From positions 1 to 25,758 of the forward strand of contig CAZROS010000001.1 in the NCBI GenBank assembly GCA_964601825.1: a stretch of DNA of 25,758 bases, written 5' to 3'. The notes below the pieces were generated by a model. It made no database searches. It was given only the letters and a program-made list of their open reading frames with translations, and was not told where the DNA came from. Positions 738-9,681 of the stretch are shown here, piece by piece. The translations under genes were made by a program, and so were the position numbers. This DNA comes from an uncultured archaeon. Its GTDB lineage: Archaea; Aenigmatarchaeota; Aenigmatarchaeia; Aenigmatarchaeales; JACQIB01. Numbering within the stretch: the first letter of the stretch is position 1; the number at the start of each line of letters is the position of its first letter.

Positions 738-2874
738 TTTTTCGCACGCGGATTAAAAAAGAATTTTTCCGGGGTTTCCTGCTGTAAAAAATAAATGCTG
801 CCGCCAGAATTCCTATGAGAGTTATTAGAGAGCCAGCATAATTAACAATAATGGGCGAGAAACTTATTTTTACATTTTCTGTTTTCGGAAAAATCAGCAT
901 GAATGACGGGCTCGCATAATAAATTTTTTCTCCGCCAGCGGACTGCCAATTCGGGAAATATGAAACTGAAATTATATGAGGCTTGCCTGGGCAGTTTGTT
1001 GCGAAAGAAATCTCTTCCTGCAAAAACTTCTCATTTGAAATCGCGCAATTATTTTCAATAGGAATTTTTCTAATCTCGCTCAAATCAAAAATCTCTGCCG
1101 CAAATTTTTCCTTGTCAAAAGCAGAAATTTCTTCATCCATCACAACTGGAAATTCCAGCAGAGAGTTATTCATCCACCATTCAAGCGACTGGACTTTTCT
1201 TTCTTCCTTTGAAATTTTCATAAAATTTGGCTGAAATGCAGGAACAGAAATATAACTTCCTGAAATAGAATTCAATTTAAAAACTTTCCACTCTTTGAAG
1301 TCTCCGATTTTTTCCCATTCGCTGCTGTTGCCCAAATCAGACTGCAGCCGGTCGAAAGTTGCTACTAGATATTTCACATTCAGCATTTTCAAATGCTTTG
1401 TCCCATCAGAAAAATTATATCCAGTTGTATGCTCCTTCCCTCCGATTGTTGGAATGCCTGCGCAGTGGTGCGAGATTTCGCATTGAGTGTAGGAAATAAA
1501 AGGAGAAGTTATTGTTGCCTGCGCATAAACCCCTTCCAGAGTGTTTCTGCCGGAAAAATATGGCATGGACTCAAAAGCGCGCGGCGTGCCAAACCTGTTG
1601 TTGATATCAGCCAAATCCACATACCCGCGGCCGTCTGTTCCCTTGAGCAGCTGATTAATTGAATTAAAAGTCTGCCAGTCTGCTTTTTTCTCCCAACCCT
1701 CATAATTCCATTTTATCCAGCCGGGAATGTAGCTCACGCTTGCGTATGTTGCGTAAAAAATTATTGCGCAGACAGCGATTGCCGAAAGCTGAAATAAAAA
1801 TCTCCGCCTAAACAGCCGCGGCAAAATATCTCCCAAAGCTGCAGCAGAAAGCATTAGCAGGAAAAAATATGTAAGCGGAACAAACCGCACATTCACATTG
1901 AACAAAAGCTCTCCGTTGAAAAATGCGAAAATTGTTGCCAGCGCGCAGAAGCCCAAAAATAAAATTTTTCTGTCTTTGTTTGCAAAGCCGCGCGCGAGCG
2001 CGTACACGCCAAGCAAAACAAAAATTATCGCTTCCTTCGGATACCACGCCTCAAGATTTATTCCCCAATCTCTTCCATATTTTGTTGTGTATTCAATATT
2101 GCTCAGAAGCGGAATTAGCCAGAAAGCAAGCAAAGAAAGCGCAAGTCCGAAAACTAAAAACAGGAATTTGAAATTCCGGAGAATTTCTTTTTTCTCTTTG
2201 CGCATAACAAAGAAAATAGCTGACAAGCCGCCTATTATTGCAGTAACCAAATGTGAAAAGAAAGTGAGAAAGTAAAGCGCTGGCAGCCAAAGAGAAAACT
2301 TTTTCTCTTCTGCTTTTTTGAAAAGGAACCCCAAAAACAAAATCATGAATCCCATGCTCAGCGCATAAGAGAATTCTCCAGCCAGATTGCTGGGAATGTT
2401 CCCGCCGAAAACATTGTTTTTTTCCTGAAAAAGAAAAATCAGCGAGAGCGCGGAAGAAATTATTGGTGTTGGAAATTTGAAGCCGAGCCAGCGCATTGTG
2501 ATATATGCTGAAACTGGAATTAGAAAATTCGGCAGAGCTGTGATAAGCTTGAACGCAATTGTAAGTGGAATTCCGATGTAAGAAAGCAATGACATGAAAA
2601 TATACGCAAGCGGAAAAATAAATTGAAAAATAGGATAGCCTGCCCATCTGCCCTGCGACCAGCCGAAAACTTCCCCTTTTGGAATTAGTTCGGTTGCCAT
2701 GAATTTTGCAAGATAATTATCCGAGCCTGTGTCCCCACCGGTTGTTGCTGTATTCAGAAGCAGGAGCTCGGGCTTGTAATAGAAAATCAAAAATCCGAAA
2801 ATCAAAATGAAAATCAGAATGTCTATATGCAATTCTTTTATTTCAGCTTTTTTCGTGCGCCTCATGGTTTCCAT
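727..2874 (-). CDS. Multi-pass membrane protein, PTPS-related/YfhO-like, predicted GT-C glycosyltransferase
   Basis: 715 aa, many TM segments, N-terminal GGDTGS loop, 'GWSQGRWAGYPIFQF', 'SNLAGEFSY', large extracellular C-terminal domain ending in one TM. Confidence 0.7.
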   Translation of the reverse strand: METMRRTKKAEIKELHIDILIFILIFGFLIFYYKPELLLLNTATTGGDTGSDNYLAKFMATELIPKGEVFGWSQGRWAGYPIFQFIFPLAYIFMSLLSYIGIPLTIAFKLITALPNFLIPVSAYITMRWLGFKFPTPIISSALSLIFLFQEKNNVFGGNIPSNLAGEFSYALSMGFMILFLGFLFKKAEEKKFSLWLPALYFLTFFSHLVTAIIGGLSAIFFVMRKEKKEILRNFKFLFLVFGLALSLLAFWLIPLLSNIEYTTKYGRDWGINLEAWYPKEAIIFVLLGVYALARGFANKDRKILFLGFCALATIFAFFNGELLFNVNVRFVPLTYFFLLMLSAAALGDILPRLFRRRFLFQLSAIAVCAIIFYATYASVSYIPGWIKWNYEGWEKKADWQTFNSINQLLKGTDGRGYVDLADINNRFGTPRAFESMPYFSGRNTLEGVYAQATITSPFISYTQCEISHHCAGIPTIGGKEHTTGYNFSDGTKHLKMLNVKYLVATFDRLQSDLGNSSEWEKIGDFKEWKVFKLNSISGSYISVPAFQPNFMKISKEERKVQSLEWWMNNSLLEFPVVMDEEISAFDKEKFAAEIFDLSEIRKIPIENNCAISNEKFLQEEISFATNCPGKPHIISVSYFPNWQSAGGEKIYYASPSFMLIFPKTENVKISFSPIIVNYAGSLITLIGILAAAFIFYSRKPRKNSFLIRVRKIEV

Positions 2875-2913: not shown

Positions 2914-3471
2914 ATGAGAAAAGAATTCTGCTTTTTGGTAGGCAGGTTCCAGCCATTTCACTTTGGGCATCTGGCTTCTGTAAAAGCCGCAGCAAAGCTT
3001 TACAAAAAAGTTGGGGTAGGAATTTTTCACCCTTCTTTTGGAAAGCCAAACAGGAAAAAGATTTTCATGCCACATGCGTTTGAGCCTGCGCAAAATCCGT
3101 TTCCATTCCAAATTGTGAAAGAGATGATTAACAAATCTCTAAAAGCAGAAAAAATTAAAAATTATAAAATTTTTAAATTTTACCCGACTGGAGTTTACTC
3201 GGTTTCAAAGTTCAAGCGCAACCTTCCTTTCCCACTTAAGTCCACAGAATTTTTTATTTCCGGCAAAGATATTGACACCAAAATTATTTCGCGCATAAAG
3301 GAGATTGGAGGGACTTACAAAACACATAAAATTTTTCTGGGAAAAAATTTCATGAGCGGGACTGAAATCAGAAAAGACTTTTTTGCTGGCAGGAAAAGGT
3401 GGGAGAAGGCTGTGCCGGCGGTAGTTAGAAAAATTCTGGATAAAAATGCTGGGCTTGGTTTGAGCACTTGA
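2914..3471 (+). CDS. Cytidylyltransferase-like nucleotidyltransferase (NMN adenylyltransferase NadM-like)
   Basis: GRFQPFHFGH (HxGH), NPF motif and C-terminal SGTEIR motif. Confidence 0.8.
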   Translation: MRKEFCFLVGRFQPFHFGHLASVKAAAKLYKKVGVGIFHPSFGKPNRKKIFMPHAFEPAQNPFPFQIVKEMINKSLKAEKIKNYKIFKFYPTGVYSVSKFKRNLPFPLKSTEFFISGKDIDTKIISRIKEIGGTYKTHKIFLGKNFMSGTEIRKDFFAGRKRWEKAVPAVVRKILDKNAGLGLST

Positions 3472-5172: not shown

Positions 5173-5191
5173 GATGGAGGTATAGATAATT

Positions 5192-5857
5192 ATGAGAAAT
5201 ATAATGTTCACAACTACTACTGAAAATCTGCGCACCATAATTGCAGGAATGGAACCAACAGAAGATGATTCTATATTGGCTATTGCAGGTTCGGGCGATC
5301 AGGCATTTGCGCTTTTAGAATATGCTGGAAAGGTAACGGCAGTAGATATAAATAGTGATCAAATGTGGTATGTGAGGAAGAGAATAGATGCTCTAAAAAA
5401 AGGGCATTACAGAGAATTTCTGGAATCCCCAATTAATGATGTGACAGAGTTTCTAGAAAGAAGTTCAAGAAATATATATTTCAGAGGTTTTTTCAGAACA
5501 AATAGAAGACTGGAGCGCATAAGAAAAAGATTGGATAGATTGGAAATTGTGGAAGGTGATATTTTTCAAATTATTAAAAAACAGAAAGGCAATTTTAACA
5601 AAGTATATTTTAGTAATTTGGGAGATTGGGTGGCTAGAGAACAGTTATATGAATCTGATGGATTAGACCATTTGCCGAATGGCTGCCTTGTTTATTGTTC
5701 ATCGGGCCCTCCTGTAGAAAGCGATCATTTAGTTGTAGACGAAAGACTAACATCACAATCAAGAAGGTTCGGCAAGTATTGGAGACCAACAGTTTACAGA
5801 AAAGTCTCACCGCCGATTCAATTTTCTCCTGTCGCACCAGTCAGATATGTTGCATAA
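5192..5857 (+). CDS. Class I SAM-dependent transferase, DUF3419/BtaA-like
   Basis: 'ILAIAGSGDQAFALL...VTAVDINSDQ' resembles the DUF3419/BtaA SAM-binding motif. Arg codons are AGA-rich, unlike neighbouring core genes. Confidence 0.55.
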   Translation: MRNIMFTTTTENLRTIIAGMEPTEDDSILAIAGSGDQAFALLEYAGKVTAVDINSDQMWYVRKRIDALKKGHYREFLESPINDVTEFLERSSRNIYFRGFFRTNRRLERIRKRLDRLEIVEGDIFQIIKKQKGNFNKVYFSNLGDWVAREQLYESDGLDHLPNGCLVYCSSGPPVESDHLVVDERLTSQSRRFGKYWRPTVYRKVSPPIQFSPVAPVRYVA

Positions 5858-5895
5858 CTAAGCGCCTTTTTAATTTGCTCGGTTAATATTTTTTC

Positions 5896-6038
5896 ATGGC
5901 AAAGCTTTCCATATTTCTTGACGAAAGCGGAGACCTTGGAAAGCGCGGCTCAAAATATTTTTAATTGAAAAGAAAATTTCAAAAATAATAAATCTATGGG
6001 AGAACAAAAACAATCAGACGGACCCCACAGGCGCTTGA
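5896..6038 (+). pseudogene. DUF3800 gene remnant with large internal deletion
   Basis: 5896-5964 encodes MAKLSIFLDESGDLGKRGSKYF*, the (I/L)DESGxLG N-terminal signature of DUF3800. A shifted frame continues LIEKKISKIINLWENK..., resembling a C-terminal tail. Confidence 0.7.
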
Positions 6039-6082
6039 AGTGCACCTCAAGGTACACGACACCCATAGGACTTACCCGTCTG
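6015..6082 (-). ncRNA. Putative structured RNA, candidate DUF3800-associated motif
   Basis: Minus strand: closing stem CAGACGGGU/GUCCGUCUG (6074-6082 with 6015-6023), inner hairpin CUUGAGG-UGCA-CUUCAAG (6034-6051), TTTAAATA at 6109-6102 upstream and a U-rich tract downstream. Confidence 0.5.
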
Positions 6083-6156
6083 TTAAGATATGATACTTTG
6101 TTATTTAAAAAGGCATAAAATTAAATCTTTATAATCTTCTCGTATAATTTTCTCCC

Positions 6157-6804
6157 ATGCGCACCTTTATTCTCTACAGCCACGCCCGCACTGATTCAAA
6201 CTGGAATATAGAAGACATGCCTAGCTCTGGTGGAAGAATGGATTTAGTGACAAGATGCGTTTCCGCAAGCCTCTGGCTTTCTTACACAATTCGGCGCGAT
6301 GCGGAGTTTATTGTTATTTTGAACGGCGCCCCTCGGCCGCCGATTGCAATAAAATTTTCCGGAGAAAAATTAAAAAATGTTTCTCCAGATGAGCGTTCTG
6401 TTGGGCTGTGGCTGAAAAAAGTTTTGGCGCAAGAAATTCCAAAAGACTGGCTGGAAGTTTTTCCGGGAATTTTCGCAGCCCAAAAATCTTTTCAGGGAAT
6501 TGTGAAAGAATACTCAAATGAACGCCCACGTTCAATCACGGGAAGAGCTTCAAATAAAGTTTTTGTTCTGCACGAAAAAGGCGAGCCAATTCAAGAGCAG
6601 AAATTTTCTGCGAGCGGCAATTTAGTTTTTGTGCTTGGAGACAATGTTGGCATCCCAGCAAAGGATGAAAAGTTTGCTTTGCGCTCAGCAGAAAAAATTT
6701 CGCTTGGGAAAACTTCATATGTCGCGAGTGCGTGCGTTTCTGTTGTGAACTGGATTTTAGACGGCTCGGCGCAAGGTAAACCTGTACGCCCCGCTAAATT
6801 GTGA
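6157..6804 (+). CDS. trmY: tRNA (pseudouridine54-N1)-methyltransferase, SPOUT
   Basis: GGRMDLVTRCV, LSYTIRRD, SPDERS, VFVLGDNVG, ISLGKTSYVASAC motifs. Confidence 0.93.
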   Translation: MRTFILYSHARTDSNWNIEDMPSSGGRMDLVTRCVSASLWLSYTIRRDAEFIVILNGAPRPPIAIKFSGEKLKNVSPDERSVGLWLKKVLAQEIPKDWLEVFPGIFAAQKSFQGIVKEYSNERPRSITGRASNKVFVLHEKGEPIQEQKFSASGNLVFVLGDNVGIPAKDEKFALRSAEKISLGKTSYVASACVSVVNWILDGSAQGKPVRPAKL

Positions 6805-6912: not shown

Positions 6913-9681
6913 ATGATTCCGCTATTGCAGAAAATTCTTGAAGCAAATCTATGCGACTCTTGTGTAGGCAGGCAGTTTGGCCAATTGCTTTCAGGCTACA
7001 CAAACGCAGAGCGCGGGAAATTTCTGCGCGCTTTTGCAGCAACAGCTGTTGACGGGAGAAAGCTCTCAACAGAAAAAATAAATCCAAATAATTTTTCTGG
7101 CTTTAAGTTCAGGCAGAACGCGGATTTTGAGAAAATTCTAATAGGGGTGCGGGGTGCGAAGCATCCTGCGTGTGAATTGTGTTATGGACTTTTTGATAAC
7201 TTGGACAAAACAGCAAAGCGCATCTCAAACTCCCTAAGCAAATATGAATTCTCAACTTTTGTTATTGGCACAAACCTCTCGCGCAAACTTTTGGATGCAG
7301 AAGAGAAATTGTGGGAGCGCTGCGGAATTGATTATTGCGAGCCCATGCGGGCTGAATTAAACAGAGAGCTGGGCAAGCGAGTTGAAAAAATTGCAGGAAA
7401 AAAAGCAGACTTGAAAAAACCTGACATTGCTGTTCTCTTGGACATGGAAGCGAACAAAGTTTGGCTGAATGTAAACCCGCTTTTTATTTTCGGCTATTAC
7501 CAAAAATTGCAGCGCGGATTCCCGCAATGCAAATGGGGCACGCCTCACAAATACAAAACTTCTGTTGAGGAGCAAGTGGGTTTGCCTGCTTTAAAATTAA
7601 CTTTAGGAAGAGACCACAAATTTCACGGATGTGTCGCTGGAGATACGAAAATCCTACTCAACGAATGTTCGCTTCCAATCAGAGAGTTAGAAAATTCCTA
7701 CAGCAAACATGAAGCAATGTCTTTTGACGAGAAAGAGAAAAAAATAGTTGCATCAGATATAAAAGATTTCATGAAAATGAAAGCCGTCATATATAAAGTT
7801 AAAACAAAAGAAACCGGAAGAGATATACTTGTTACAAATGAGCATCCGTTCTTTACATCCGAAGGGATGAAGCCGCTTGCGAACTTAAAAATGGGCGAGC
7901 TTGTCGCTGTTAATCCTTTAGAGCCCGCCACATATTCTGAATTTAAAGGAAAAATAATTTCAGATGAAAAAGAAATTAATTTAGTTATAGAGAAATATGC
8001 GCCGACTTCTTTCAAATCTAAAATAATCAAAGAGCTGAAAGAAAGAAAATTGCTGCCGCTTTTTGCTGATAGCCCCTCTGCTTTGATTCTTGCGAGAATC
8101 GCGGCATTTCTGTTTGGAGATGGAAATGTAAGATATACAAGAAAAAGAGATGTTGGAATAGAGTTTTATGGTGAAGTTGTTGACTTGAGAGAAATACAAA
8201 AAGATTTAGAAAAATTGGGATTTAAGTCTGAACTTTATAAGAGAAATTTGAGAACATCAATTATAAAAGATTATTATGGAAACGAAAAAATAATAGAACC
8301 CAAAAAAGAGCAGAGAGTTTTGGTTTGCTATTCTAAAAGCTTGTGGGCTTTGCTTGTAGCATTGGGCGTGCCTGTGGGAAATAAAGTTGTAAACGAATTT
8401 AAAATACCAGATTGGATAAAAGAGTCAGACTCATTCAAGAGAGAATTTCTCGCTTCTTTATTTGCTTGCGAGATGGACGTTCCAAGATTAGACAAAAGAA
8501 ATTACAACAGAAAGAGCTTTAACACTCCCAGATTTTCTCTGAACAAAATAGAAAGCAAAGTCAATAACATGGTTGCATTTATGGAAGATATAAAAGAAAT
8601 TCTTTCGGAGTTTGGAATAAGAACTCTCAAATTAAGGCTTCTGCCTTACACTACAAGAAAAGATGGAAATAAATCTATAAAGGTAATACTGGACTTCAAT
8701 AACAGTTTTGAAAATCTGATAAATTTATACAACAAAATAAACTTCAGGTACTGCAGGCAGAAAGAAATTCGCTCTAAACATGTACTGGAATATCTGCTCA
8801 TGAAAAAATATTTTGTTGATAAGCGCAAAGAGCTTTACAAAAAAGCTTTGGAATTAAAGAAAGATGGAATGAAATTATCTGAAATTCATAGAAAGCTGAA
8901 TAGCGATCATGTTAGTAAAAAAGACTTGTGGCTGTGGGTTAGTGGCAATATAAAAAATAGAAATATAAAAGTTCGGAATAATTTCCCAAGTTTTGATGAT
9001 TGGCTCAAAAAACATTCAGAGGGACTTGCTTATGGGTTGATTTGGGAAACAATAGAATCTGTAGAAAAGGTTGGTGAAGATTTCGTTTATGATTTGACCA
9101 TTCCAAGAAATCATAATTTCTTTGCCAACGGCTTTTTGGTTTCAAACTCCGGCCGCGAGGATATTGATGCACGTTGCCTTGCCTGGCGGCCGTTTGTTTT
9201 GGAGATTGCAAAGCCGCGGCTGCGCAAAATTGATTTAAAGAGATTAGAAAAAACAATTTCAAAATCAAAAAAAATAAAAGTCCGCGGATTGAAATTTTCC
9301 AATATGGAAACTGTCCGCGAAATTAAAGCAGCAGCTGTTGACAAAACTTACAGAGCGCTCGTTCAATTGAAAAAATCCATTAGCAAAAAAGATTTGAAAA
9401 AACTTTCTGCTTTGCGCGGAACAATTTCCCAGCGCACTCCTGAAAGAGTTTTGCACAGGCGCGCGGATTTACATAGAAAGCGCGAGGTTATTTCAATAAA
9501 AGCAAAATTAAAAAATAAAAAAACTTTGGAGCTTGTGATAAAGGGGAGCGCAGGGCTTTACATCAAGGAATTAATTTCCGGAGACAATGGCAGGACGCGC
9601 CCGAGCGTTTCAGAAGTTCTTGGGACAGAAGCGAAGTGCAAGGAATTAGATGTTGTAAATATAGGAAAGATAAAACTTTAG
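6913..9681 (+). CDS. pus10: tRNA pseudouridine 54/55 synthase Pus10 precursor containing an intein (416 aa after splicing)
   Basis: N-terminal LCDSCVGRQF and CELC Zn ligands, THUMP region 'AELNRELGKR', catalytic 'FHG|SGREDIDARCL', C-terminal 'SQRTPERVLHRRAD' and 'AGLYIKELISGDNGRTRPS'. Confidence 0.95.
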   Translation: MIPLLQKILEANLCDSCVGRQFGQLLSGYTNAERGKFLRAFAATAVDGRKLSTEKINPNNFSGFKFRQNADFEKILIGVRGAKHPACELCYGLFDNLDKTAKRISNSLSKYEFSTFVIGTNLSRKLLDAEEKLWERCGIDYCEPMRAELNRELGKRVEKIAGKKADLKKPDIAVLLDMEANKVWLNVNPLFIFGYYQKLQRGFPQCKWGTPHKYKTSVEEQVGLPALKLTLGRDHKFHGCVAGDTKILLNECSLPIRELENSYSKHEAMSFDEKEKKIVASDIKDFMKMKAVIYKVKTKETGRDILVTNEHPFFTSEGMKPLANLKMGELVAVNPLEPATYSEFKGKIISDEKEINLVIEKYAPTSFKSKIIKELKERKLLPLFADSPSALILARIAAFLFGDGNVRYTRKRDVGIEFYGEVVDLREIQKDLEKLGFKSELYKRNLRTSIIKDYYGNEKIIEPKKEQRVLVCYSKSLWALLVALGVPVGNKVVNEFKIPDWIKESDSFKREFLASLFACEMDVPRLDKRNYNRKSFNTPRFSLNKIESKVNNMVAFMEDIKEILSEFGIRTLKLRLLPYTTRKDGNKSIKVILDFNNSFENLINLYNKINFRYCRQKEIRSKHVLEYLLMKKYFVDKRKELYKKALELKKDGMKLSEIHRKLNSDHVSKKDLWLWVSGNIKNRNIKVRNNFPSFDDWLKKHSEGLAYGLIWETIESVEKVGEDFVYDLTIPRNHNFFANGFLVSNSGREDIDARCLAWRPFVLEIAKPRLRKIDLKRLEKTISKSKKIKVRGLKFSNMETVREIKAAAVDKTYRALVQLKKSISKKDLKKLSALRGTISQRTPERVLHRRADLHRKREVISIKAKLKNKKTLELVIKGSAGLYIKELISGDNGRTRPSVSEVLGTEAKCKELDVVNIGKIKL
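7630..9147 (+). mobile_element. Intein with LAGLIDADG homing endonuclease (506 aa)
   Basis: Starts CVAGDTKILL, block B VTNEHPFF, endonuclease motifs ARIAAFLFGDG and FLASLFACE, block F/G VYDLTIPRNHNFFANGFLVSN, followed by Ser+1. Confidence 0.95.

Follow-up and report, generated by a model that had tools for sequence, protein, structure and literature searches.

The DNA analyzed here, a 25,758-nt stretch of contig CAZROS010000001.1 from an uncultured archaeon of the Aenigmatarchaeota (hereafter, the window), carries an intact gene for a small structured RNA directly behind a destroyed DUF3800 gene. The RNA belongs to a family of DPANN archaea, represented by more than 130 copies, that also has variants in bacteria of the candidate phyla radiation (CPR). 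Across this family, a DUF3800 protein gene lacking the RNA is very rare, RNAs lacking the protein gene are common, and broken protein genes recur beside intact RNAs. This pattern of loss suggests, short of proof, that the RNA acts as an antidote to the protein. A preliminary description of the locus had proposed an archaeal DUF3800 protein-RNA module whose protein was lost while the RNA was kept. Its observation was confirmed and its interpretation proved largely right, given an intact module in a relative (locus L004), the regular presence of the RNA beside other DUF3800 genes, the covariation of its fold and a well-scoring copy in the window.

On the minus strand, the element folds with a minimum free energy of -36.9 kcal/mol (z = -5.0), and none of 200 shuffled sequences folds as well. 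The plus strand reaches only -18.6 kcal/mol (z = -1.4), in agreement with the earlier statement that the minus strand folds better. The features of the RNA and its surroundings are listed in Table 1. Several details of the fold first described needed revision. The closing stem, given as 9 bp with two G-U pairs, has 8 bp and one terminal G.U pair, and the proposed CUUGAGG/CUUCAAG hairpin with a UGCA loop is paired in 50% of cells across the family, compared to 97% for the hairpin GUGYACC/GGUGCAC. The two near-identical CCU(A/G)UGGG segments are indeed present, but they are the two strands of P2 and pair with each other in the conserved fold. The window and L004 RNAs differ at just two positions, which together form one compensatory change from A-U to G-C at 6066/6027 in P2. 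An additional pairing with CCCAUAG (5994-6000) had also been suggested. This segment is the antisense of conserved Leu-Trp-Glu codons of DUF3800, and the change seen in L004 does not compensate that in the RNA; the pairing is not supported. The promoter box and the U-rich tract (6006-6010) noted earlier are both present and are conserved in homologues. In its match to covariance model R2, the window copy scores like copies that stand beside intact genes. Based on these features, the element is best explained as an independently transcribed, structured RNA of approximately 70 nt with its own predicted TFB recognition element (BRE)/TATA promoter and U-tract terminator.

Table 1. Features of the DUF3800 remnant, the RNA gene and the surrounding segment in the window.
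Feature	Position	Strand	Remarks
Segment between SRP54 stop and trmY start	5173-6156		Insertion compared to L001/L002; DUF3419-like methyltransferase gene, DUF3800 remnant and RNA gene
BRE/TATA-like box GCCTTTTTAA	5864-5873	+	Upstream of DUF3800 remnant; inverted partner of 6105-6114; in L004, same spacer before trmY
DUF3800 5' remnant	5897-5965	+	22 codons, MAKLSIFLDESGDLGKRGSKYF, plus TAA made by the deletion
Deletion joint	5962-5963	+	508 bp gone (approximately L004 2147-2654), out of frame; alignment blocks meet at 5962
DUF3800 3' remnant	5963-6014	+	Now out of frame; L004 codons ..IEKKISKTINLWENKNNQ; 92% identity to L004 2654-2802
U-rich 3' tail AUUGUUUUUGUU	6003-6014	-	U5 at 6006-6010; probable terminator of archaeal type; antisense to the Asn/Lys codons of DUF3800
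Small RNA gene	6013-6084	-	Covariance model R2 match, 68.7 bits, E ~1e-16; inverted-repeat element of 68 nt at 6015-6082
P1	6075-6082 with 6015-6022	-	
UAAGU bulge	6070-6074	-	Opposite single G 6023
P2	6059-6069 with 6024-6034	-	
P3 hairpin GUGUACC/GGUGCAC	6051-6057 with 6040-6046	-	Loop UUGA 6047-6050
Linker UUCAA	6035-6039	-	
RNA promoter GCC-TTTTTAAATA	6102-6114	-	TATA 8-mer TTTAAATA at 6102-6109, starting 32 nt upstream of the first G of GGGUAAG

The state of the protein gene is different. A DUF3800 profile of 46 archaeal proteins matches solely nucleotides 5899-5970 within the window, over profile positions 3-26 (20-25 bits; E 1.4e-7). The Pfam search of the 22-aa remnant peptide returned no score, as the peptide is too short. 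In the relative L004, by contrast, the DUF3800 gene is intact (216 aa, PF12686). Window positions 5885-5962 share 93.6% nucleotide identity with L004 2069-2146, and positions 5962-6111 share 92% with L004 2654-2802. Because these two alignment blocks meet at 5962, the missing stretch amounts to 508 bp. The comparison bears out the reading that the first 22 codons and a C-terminal tail of the gene remain, with the joint where it had been placed. The sequence across the joint is AAATATTTTT/AATTG, and as the deletion is out of frame, it creates an immediate TAA stop codon. The natural DUF3800 C-terminus is ..LW(K/E) in the protein alignment A1. The domain-wide homology and intact frame that characterize PF12686 are gone, with profile positions 3-26 alone being left, and the remnant open reading frame (ORF) is a pseudogene. 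Hence, the RNA gene in the window is intact while its DUF3800 gene is destroyed, and L004 and the window constitute a minimal pair of natural alleles.

The family was delineated with 78 loci from species-representative genomes, fetched through homologues of the L004 DUF3800 protein (alignment A1). Local folding just 3' of the archaeal DUF3800 genes yielded the same element each time, on the opposite strand. In the consensus of a 22-sequence alignment (A2), a P1 of approximately 7 bp is closed by a G.U pair and followed by a UAAGU bulge on the 5' side, opposite a single G. The inner part consists of a variable P2 of 8-12 bp that opens with CC:GG, a GUGYACC-(GGAU or UUGA)-GGUGCAC hairpin and an A-rich 3' linker. 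RNAalifold detected compensatory changes at 11 of the 20 pairs. In alignment A4 (27 sequences), 91% of cells are paired, compared to 32-53% when the partners are slid, and double changes occur at 12 of 22 pairs. The covariation score equals 0.386 against 0.157 for shuffled alignments, and 0 of 500 shuffles scored as high; covariation was counted here on model-fitted alignments of related sequences. The strand of the RNA is fixed by the frequent U.G pairs. Wherever an archaeal locus leaves enough room, model R2 matches the element, and this holds for six loci that were not part of the seed (55-71 bits). The members measure 72-79 nt, differing by lengths that are not multiples of three. A similar and covarying structure downstream of other archaeal DUF3800 genes, which the preliminary description had named as a check on its module, was thus recovered.

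Conserved signals also flank the element. Among 99 distinct copies, C and G together make up at most 5% at positions -31 to -28 relative to GGGUAAG, preceded by an A-rich, BRE-like stretch. The best TATA 8-mer starts between -35 and -31 in 62 of these 99 copies (-32 in the window), and this position places the predicted transcription start 1-3 nt before P1. Downstream of P1, a run of at least four T residues occurs within 30 nt in 58 of the 99 homologues. Judging from promoters as clear as these, the RNA is plainly a gene.

Some members depart from the consensus. The RNAs of L021 (1258-1378, minus strand) and L080 (2195-2315, minus strand) contain, between P2 and the apical hairpin, a GC-rich insertion of approximately 45 nt with two additional hairpins, and the L031 RNA has another insertion on its 3' side. 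RNAs of the archaeal type also follow DUF3800 in two CPR loci, L082 (2640-2711, minus strand) and L071 (approximately 2618-2696, minus strand), from Parcubacteria and Berkelbacteria. Both have the UAAG(U/A)CC core, a CCGGAUGG loop and a UUAAAG linker, which suggests exchange between CPR bacteria and DPANN archaea.

Starting from the protein, a clear convergent RNA was found at 29 of the 30 assessable archaeal DUF3800 loci. Two loci deviate: the RNA of L036 is weak, and that of L076 lies 591 nt from the gene. At most one intact DUF3800 gene (L036) has a weak RNA. In two of these loci, L065 (65 bits) and L080 (29 bits, the insertion variant), a truncated DUF3800 gene stands beside a matching RNA. 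The distance from the DUF3800 stop codon to the 3' boundary of the RNA has a median of 2 nt and falls within 10 nt on either side in 31 of 42 cases, and some DUF3800 ORFs, among them that of L004, extend into the RNA. Given this geometry, the nuclease mRNA must run antisense through the RNA gene. In L011 (2001-2978, plus strand) and L015 (2001-3050, plus strand), the DUF3800 frame continues for 370-440 nt through and past the antisense RNA, forming a long, putative C-terminal extension.

Starting from the RNA, a degenerate DNA pattern of its core was used to scan Joint Genome Institute (JGI) metagenomes and one viral contig. The scan yielded 106 stretches, all but two of which were confirmed by R2 (39-75 bits); since the pattern demands the conserved core, degenerate RNAs are invisible to it. 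Among the distinct RNAs, 39 abut an intact DUF3800 gene, 5 a gene cut by the contig end and 4 a frameshifted or fragmented gene, while 41 have no DUF3800 on that side (orphans) and 5 leave no room for assessment. In this protein-independent scan, 48 of the 89 assessable RNAs thus abut a DUF3800 gene or fragment, and approximately 45% of the distinct copies do not. The orphans hold the fold, with 92% of cells paired and a covariation score of 0.463 against 0.176. A DUF3800 gene is present anywhere in several kb of flank for just 3 of approximately 48 orphans, and no DUF3800 remnant of at least 8 bits was found within 1.2 kb of them, whereas the window remnant scores 24.7 bits. A tail resembling ..LWK plus stop codon is kept by approximately 7 of the 41.

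The 71 ORFs flanking the orphans fall into 50 similarity groups without a recurrent family, and another partner protein for the orphan RNAs was rejected for this reason. The neighbors have a defence or toxin-antitoxin (TA) flavour and include PIN, AbiEii, DUF6036, GmrSD, a type I restriction-modification S subunit, a C5 methylase, Schlafen/AlbA_2, Fic, NYN, PycTM, AAA_14/DUF4143 and a D5-type primase. On some contigs, multiple RNA copies lie within a few kb, some abutting DUF3800 and some orphan, as in L185 (611-690, 3162-3241 and 3316-3393), L151 (927-999 and 4117-4188) and L158 (4215-4290 and 5666-5739). One orphan, L193 (1096-1174, plus strand), is located on the predicted viral contig IMGVR_UViG_3300014911_000002 (89 kb), and the same RNA occurs in L191. 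It is preceded by bacterial-type hairpin terminators instead of a TATA box, and its flanking ORFs have no PHROG match.

The DUF3800 protein itself is predicted to be an RNase HII-like nuclease. Its AlphaFold2 model (L004 protein; mean predicted local distance difference test score [pLDDT], 89) has RNase HII 1eke as its best PDB match in Foldseek (E 3.5e-6; TM 0.54), and all sixteen matches at E <= 1e-3 are RNase HII/H2 proteins (E 3.5e-6 to 9e-4; TM approximately 0.5). Residues D9 and E10 of the DESGD motif, which resembles the DEAG motif of RNase HII, are invariant in alignment A1, as is D172, and D126 is nearly so. The similarity and the conserved acidic residues are consistent with an RNase H type 2 fold. 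A PDB search by sequence gave nothing useful for DUF3800, and the PHROGs match is to an unnamed family only. Relatives of the protein are common on viral contigs. RNase H2-like DUF3800 proteins have been described as the effector of type VII retrons and as companions of Cas12a2/a3 and Cas13 loci (PMC7736814, PMC10910872, PMC13594972, bioRxiv 10.64898/2026.08.25.746378).

Structured RNAs next to DUF3800 have been reported before, namely the eleven motifs (DUF3800-I to -XI) of Weinberg et al. (2017, PMC5737381). These were of unknown function, and the authors noted no obvious mutual resemblance except for a frequent UAA. The archaeal RNA fits this loose class, as a structured RNA that consistently adjoins DUF3800. 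However, the comparison with the Rfam DUF3800 motifs that the preliminary description had advised produced no match, either for the window or for the archaeal copies. Rfam 15 gave no match in the window at the gathering threshold, no DUF3800 family at E <= 10 in 5850-6170 or in L014 2590-2720, and no match at gathering among 20 archaeal loci. With the same library, DUF3800-III was recognized in ten Chloroflexi loci, and DUF3800-X and DUF3800-V were recognized in viral contigs, each convergent to the DUF3800 3' end and abutting or overlapping it. The archaeal RNA matches none of the five motifs known to be in the Rfam copy used (DUF3800-I, III, V, IX and X) and may be one of the published motifs that are absent from Rfam. 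Literature searches found no newer functional work on DUF3800-associated RNAs.

A core shared with the archaeal RNA can be read from the printed consensus sequences: ugGuGa-GUAAG-uCC...GGg-u-uCaCca with a GGAU apical loop for DUF3800-X and cucg-UAAgu-CCuGG...CCaGG-G-ugag for DUF3800-III. DUF3800-X (RF02984) has a length of approximately 73 nt and, like the archaeal RNA, consists of a P1, a GUAAG bulge, a (U)CC..GG helix with one unpaired base in the 3' strand and an apical hairpin with a GGAU loop. It is likewise convergent and abuts the DUF3800 3' end (in L194, the gene match ends at 3103 and the RNA occupies 3114-3187 on the minus strand). It differs in its own large conserved internal loops (GAAAGGAUGAU / AUGGGAGCAAGUA) and another apical stem, whereas in the archaeal RNA P2 is longer, the apical hairpin is GUGYACC/GGUGCAC, the 3' side has just an A-rich linker and the promoters are of the BRE/TATA type. 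The two models miss each other, as no Rfam match appears at E <= 10 on the window or L014 and no R2 match on L194. DUF3800-III (RF02962) resembles the archaeal RNA in its position and orientation to DUF3800 in the ten Chloroflexi loci, as well as in its core, where a G.U-closed stem and a UAAGU bulge facing a lone G lead into a CCUGG..CCAGG helix. In contrast, it measures 108 nt and contains two distal hairpins and a conserved GACAGACUGAAAUCG segment, and neither model detects the other class above threshold.

Two further sets of loci display related RNAs. Two near-identical DUF3800-III RNAs lie approximately 1 kb apart on an Anaerolineales contig (L047; 2641-2747 and 3708-3815, minus strand). 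On the phage contigs L217 (2397-2478), L271 (2394-2474) and L264 (2328-2413), a plus-strand RNA with the core P1-GUAA(A/G)U-CC...GG-G-U-P1' and a U-tract terminator lies directly upstream of DUF3800 on the same strand, below every Rfam gathering threshold.

At least three classes (III, X and the archaeal RNA), together with unclassified phage and CPR variants, thus share one core. The window RNA is a new archaeal variant, uncatalogued in Rfam, in this superfamily. That unrelated hosts have a single core and a convergent, abutting layout in common suggests that DUF3800 itself is what these RNAs bind. DUF3800 RNA motifs have been known since 2017 with no function proposed, and DUF3800 in type VII retrons and in Cas12a2/a3 and Cas13 loci is still without a mechanism. 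To these, the present analysis adds an archaeal (DPANN) class with clear promoters, a core shared across classes and a testable hypothesis based on the asymmetry of loss.

The reading that we prefer, tentatively and as plausible rather than probable, is that the RNA is the partner and probable inhibitor of the DUF3800 nuclease, in an antitoxin- or immunity-like role. Binding of the protein would involve the GUGYACC-NNNN-GGUGCAC hairpin of the RNA and its conserved internal loop (G-UAAGU-CC opposite GG-G-U), and the bound RNA would hold the nuclease inactive within a TA or defence module. With convergent transcription, the whole RNA would also be antisense to the 3' end of the nuclease mRNA, and this could add a second layer of repression. 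Loss of the nuclease would then be tolerated, such that broken nuclease genes and orphan RNAs would accumulate, but a nuclease without the RNA would not be tolerated. RNA-protein binding, inhibition and toxicity are steps that we infer. The TA-like or defence role considered in the preliminary description gains plausibility from the loss asymmetry and the defence-island neighborhoods.

In its proposed logic, such a module would be analogous to type III TA systems (ToxIN, CptIN and TenpIN), where a structured RNA neutralizes an adjacent nuclease. Both occur in defence or mobile contexts, and in both it is the (here presumed) toxin gene, rather than the antidote, that tends to be lost. The architectures differ: type III antitoxins are tandem repeats located upstream on the strand of the toxin and processed by it, and the toxins have the ToxN/AbiQ endoRNase fold, whereas the archaeal RNA is single-copy, convergent and equipped with its own predicted promoter, and its protein is RNase HII-like. 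The module also falls outside type I TA systems, despite the convergent 3' overlap, as the protein is a soluble, nuclease-like protein of approximately 210 aa and not a small hydrophobic toxin peptide. Type VII retrons (PMC7736814) likewise pair a DUF3800 nuclease-like effector with an adjacent structured non-coding nucleic acid. However, no reverse transcriptase or msr/msd was seen beside the archaeal modules, where the partner is a plain RNA gene.

Several observations weigh against the antidote reading. The same asymmetry could arise if one DUF3800 protein per genome served several RNA genes in trans, as flanks rather than genomes were scanned. Approximately 34 of the 41 orphans show no DUF3800 remnant at all and are thus not obviously recent toxin losses. 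The RNA antitoxins known so far (type III) are tandem upstream repeats, an arrangement that the archaeal RNA does not have. The same-strand upstream RNAs of the phage contigs imply that antisense overlap cannot be essential across the superfamily. The PADLOC matches are weak (DUF3800_VII at 3.2e-6 for one archaeal protein; PDC-M04A at 7.5e-9). Finally, the deletion is known from one metagenomic contig, where an assembly artefact is possible.

A broader version, which we regard as doubtful, would have one RNA core (G.U-closed stem, UAAG(N) bulge opposite G, and CC:GG helix) restrain DUF3800 universally, be it in DPANN archaea, in CPR bacteria and Chloroflexi or in phages. RNA-antidote TA or abortive-infection systems would then gain a new type, whose RNA is not repetitive, is usually convergent and has a promoter of its own, and orphans in defence islands would provide immunity against incoming DUF3800 modules. 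If the RNA is indeed an antidote, it would represent a new RNA-protein TA or defence architecture in some of the least tractable archaea. The finding supplies a core motif that unifies these RNAs, a clear model of the gene and an antidote hypothesis that can be tested.

Unlikely, yet deserving serious attention, is the opposite role, in which an active DUF3800 ribonucleoprotein, comparable to those of TnpB and IscB, cannot do without the RNA as its cofactor, scaffold or guide. The orphans would be isoforms acting in trans, and the window RNA would be a functionless leftover or serve another DUF3800 copy. Such a role agrees with the near-constant presence of the RNA at assessable DUF3800 loci, the core kept across motif classes, the several RNA copies near one DUF3800 gene in L185, L151 and L158, the hypervariable inner P2 and 3' linker, and the RNase H-like nature of DUF3800, shared with many RNA-guided nucleases. 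TnpB/IscB omega-RNAs, too, involve an RNase H-fold nuclease and a structured RNA at the 3' end of its gene, in a compact two-part unit that shifts position. They are, however, transcribed from the strand of the nuclease, overlap the 3' end of its gene and carry a guide segment, while the archaeal RNA is convergent, with no evident guide-like segment and no transposon ends. Its variable part is mostly paired and covarying, and the single-stranded linker, 5-13 nt long and A-rich, is poor guide material. Moreover, the scarcity of DUF3800 genes in the flanks of orphans speaks against a cofactor, which in addition does not predict the repeated decay of protein genes beside intact RNAs.

It is improbable that the RNA works independently of DUF3800 (for example, as a small RNA belonging to defence islands or mobile elements), with DUF3800 as a selfish gene that inserts precisely at its 3' end in a homing-like manner and the orphans as empty sites. 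This would account for the large fraction of RNAs without a DUF3800 gene or remnant, the very precise junction, the movement of the DUF3800-RNA unit relative to its neighbors between the window and L004, and the many DUF3800 relatives on viral contigs. In the lineage of the window, however, the RNA arrived as part of the insertion and the empty L001/L002 site lacks it, and no pair of empty and occupied sites with matching flanks was found. Structurally different RNA classes across phyla share the core and each track DUF3800, which is hard to explain by target choice.

Quite improbable is a purely cis-antisense regulator in the manner of type I TA systems, which would pair with the 3' end or 3' untranslated region of the DUF3800 mRNA and lower its stability or translation without binding the protein. 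The strict convergence, with the stop codon so close to the RNA 3' end and some ORFs entering the RNA, fits this idea, as do the strong and conserved RNA promoter and the like layout of Rfam DUF3800-III, -V and -X. It leaves unexplained the conserved unpaired nucleotides (UAAGU and the GGAU/UUGA loop), the intramolecular compensatory changes, the structurally intact orphans without a sense gene and the same-strand upstream phage RNAs.

The absence of any functional RNA, with the element being a chance hairpin, a DUF3800 terminator, a small ORF, a miniature inverted-repeat transposable element (MITE) or an attC-like recombination site, would suit a hairpin at an ORF 3' end in variable, defence-rich regions, with a perfect 10-nt inverted repeat around remnant and hairpin and short ORFs overlapping it, but is essentially excluded by covariation (compensatory changes among more than 130 copies), strand asymmetry (many G.U pairs on one strand only) and promoter (BRE/TATA at a fixed distance, with a U tract after most copies), beside which the length differences argue against coding sequence, R/L-box (GTTRRRY) features are missing and no integrase is among the listed neighbor families.

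The MITE was considered specifically for the inverted repeat 5864-5873/6105-6114 and rejected, since its arms are two facing BRE/TATA-like boxes and, by R2, the window holds a single copy of the element. No tandem repeats were detected in 5850-6160. An H/ACA or C/D small RNA, considered because of the nearby trmY and pus10, was discarded, as inspection by eye revealed neither an ACA box after P1 nor C/D boxes, and no K-turn or K-loop either. Neither ARAGORN nor the Rfam tRNA model found a tRNA or tmRNA in the window, and a tRNA, split tRNA or tmRNA was rejected on the ARAGORN result.

The surroundings of the module were compared with relatives fetched through the neighboring genes, including L001 and L002, whose TrmY is 78% identical to that of the window. 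In both, the SRP54 stop codon abuts the trmY ATG with no insert, which identifies window 5173-6156 as an insertion. The RNA does lie immediately upstream of trmY-pus10, as the preliminary description had noted, but this position is incidental, as SRP54 abuts trmY in close relatives and other copies occur in unrelated contexts. The gene order in L004 is SRP54, DUF3800, hairpin RNA, DUF3419-like methyltransferase and trmY, such that the DUF3800-RNA unit lies on opposite sides of the methyltransferase gene in the two genomes. The spacer of approximately 30 nt in front of trmY in L004 (3567-3597) is found twice in the window, at 5860-5896 and 6127-6156.

The DUF3419-like S-adenosylmethionine (SAM) methyltransferase gene (5192-5857, plus strand; 221 aa) has a weak PADLOC match to 'mad2' (1.2e-7). 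Its protein is 70% identical to that of L004, compared to 92-94% DNA identity for the DUF3800/RNA unit, and the two parts may therefore have different histories. Further downstream, pus10 (6913-9681, plus strand) owes its length of 922 codons to an intein that includes a LAGLIDADG homing-endonuclease domain (Pfam Intein_splicing and LAGLIDADG_3), while the Pus10 proteins of L001 and L003 measure 399-417 aa and have no intein.

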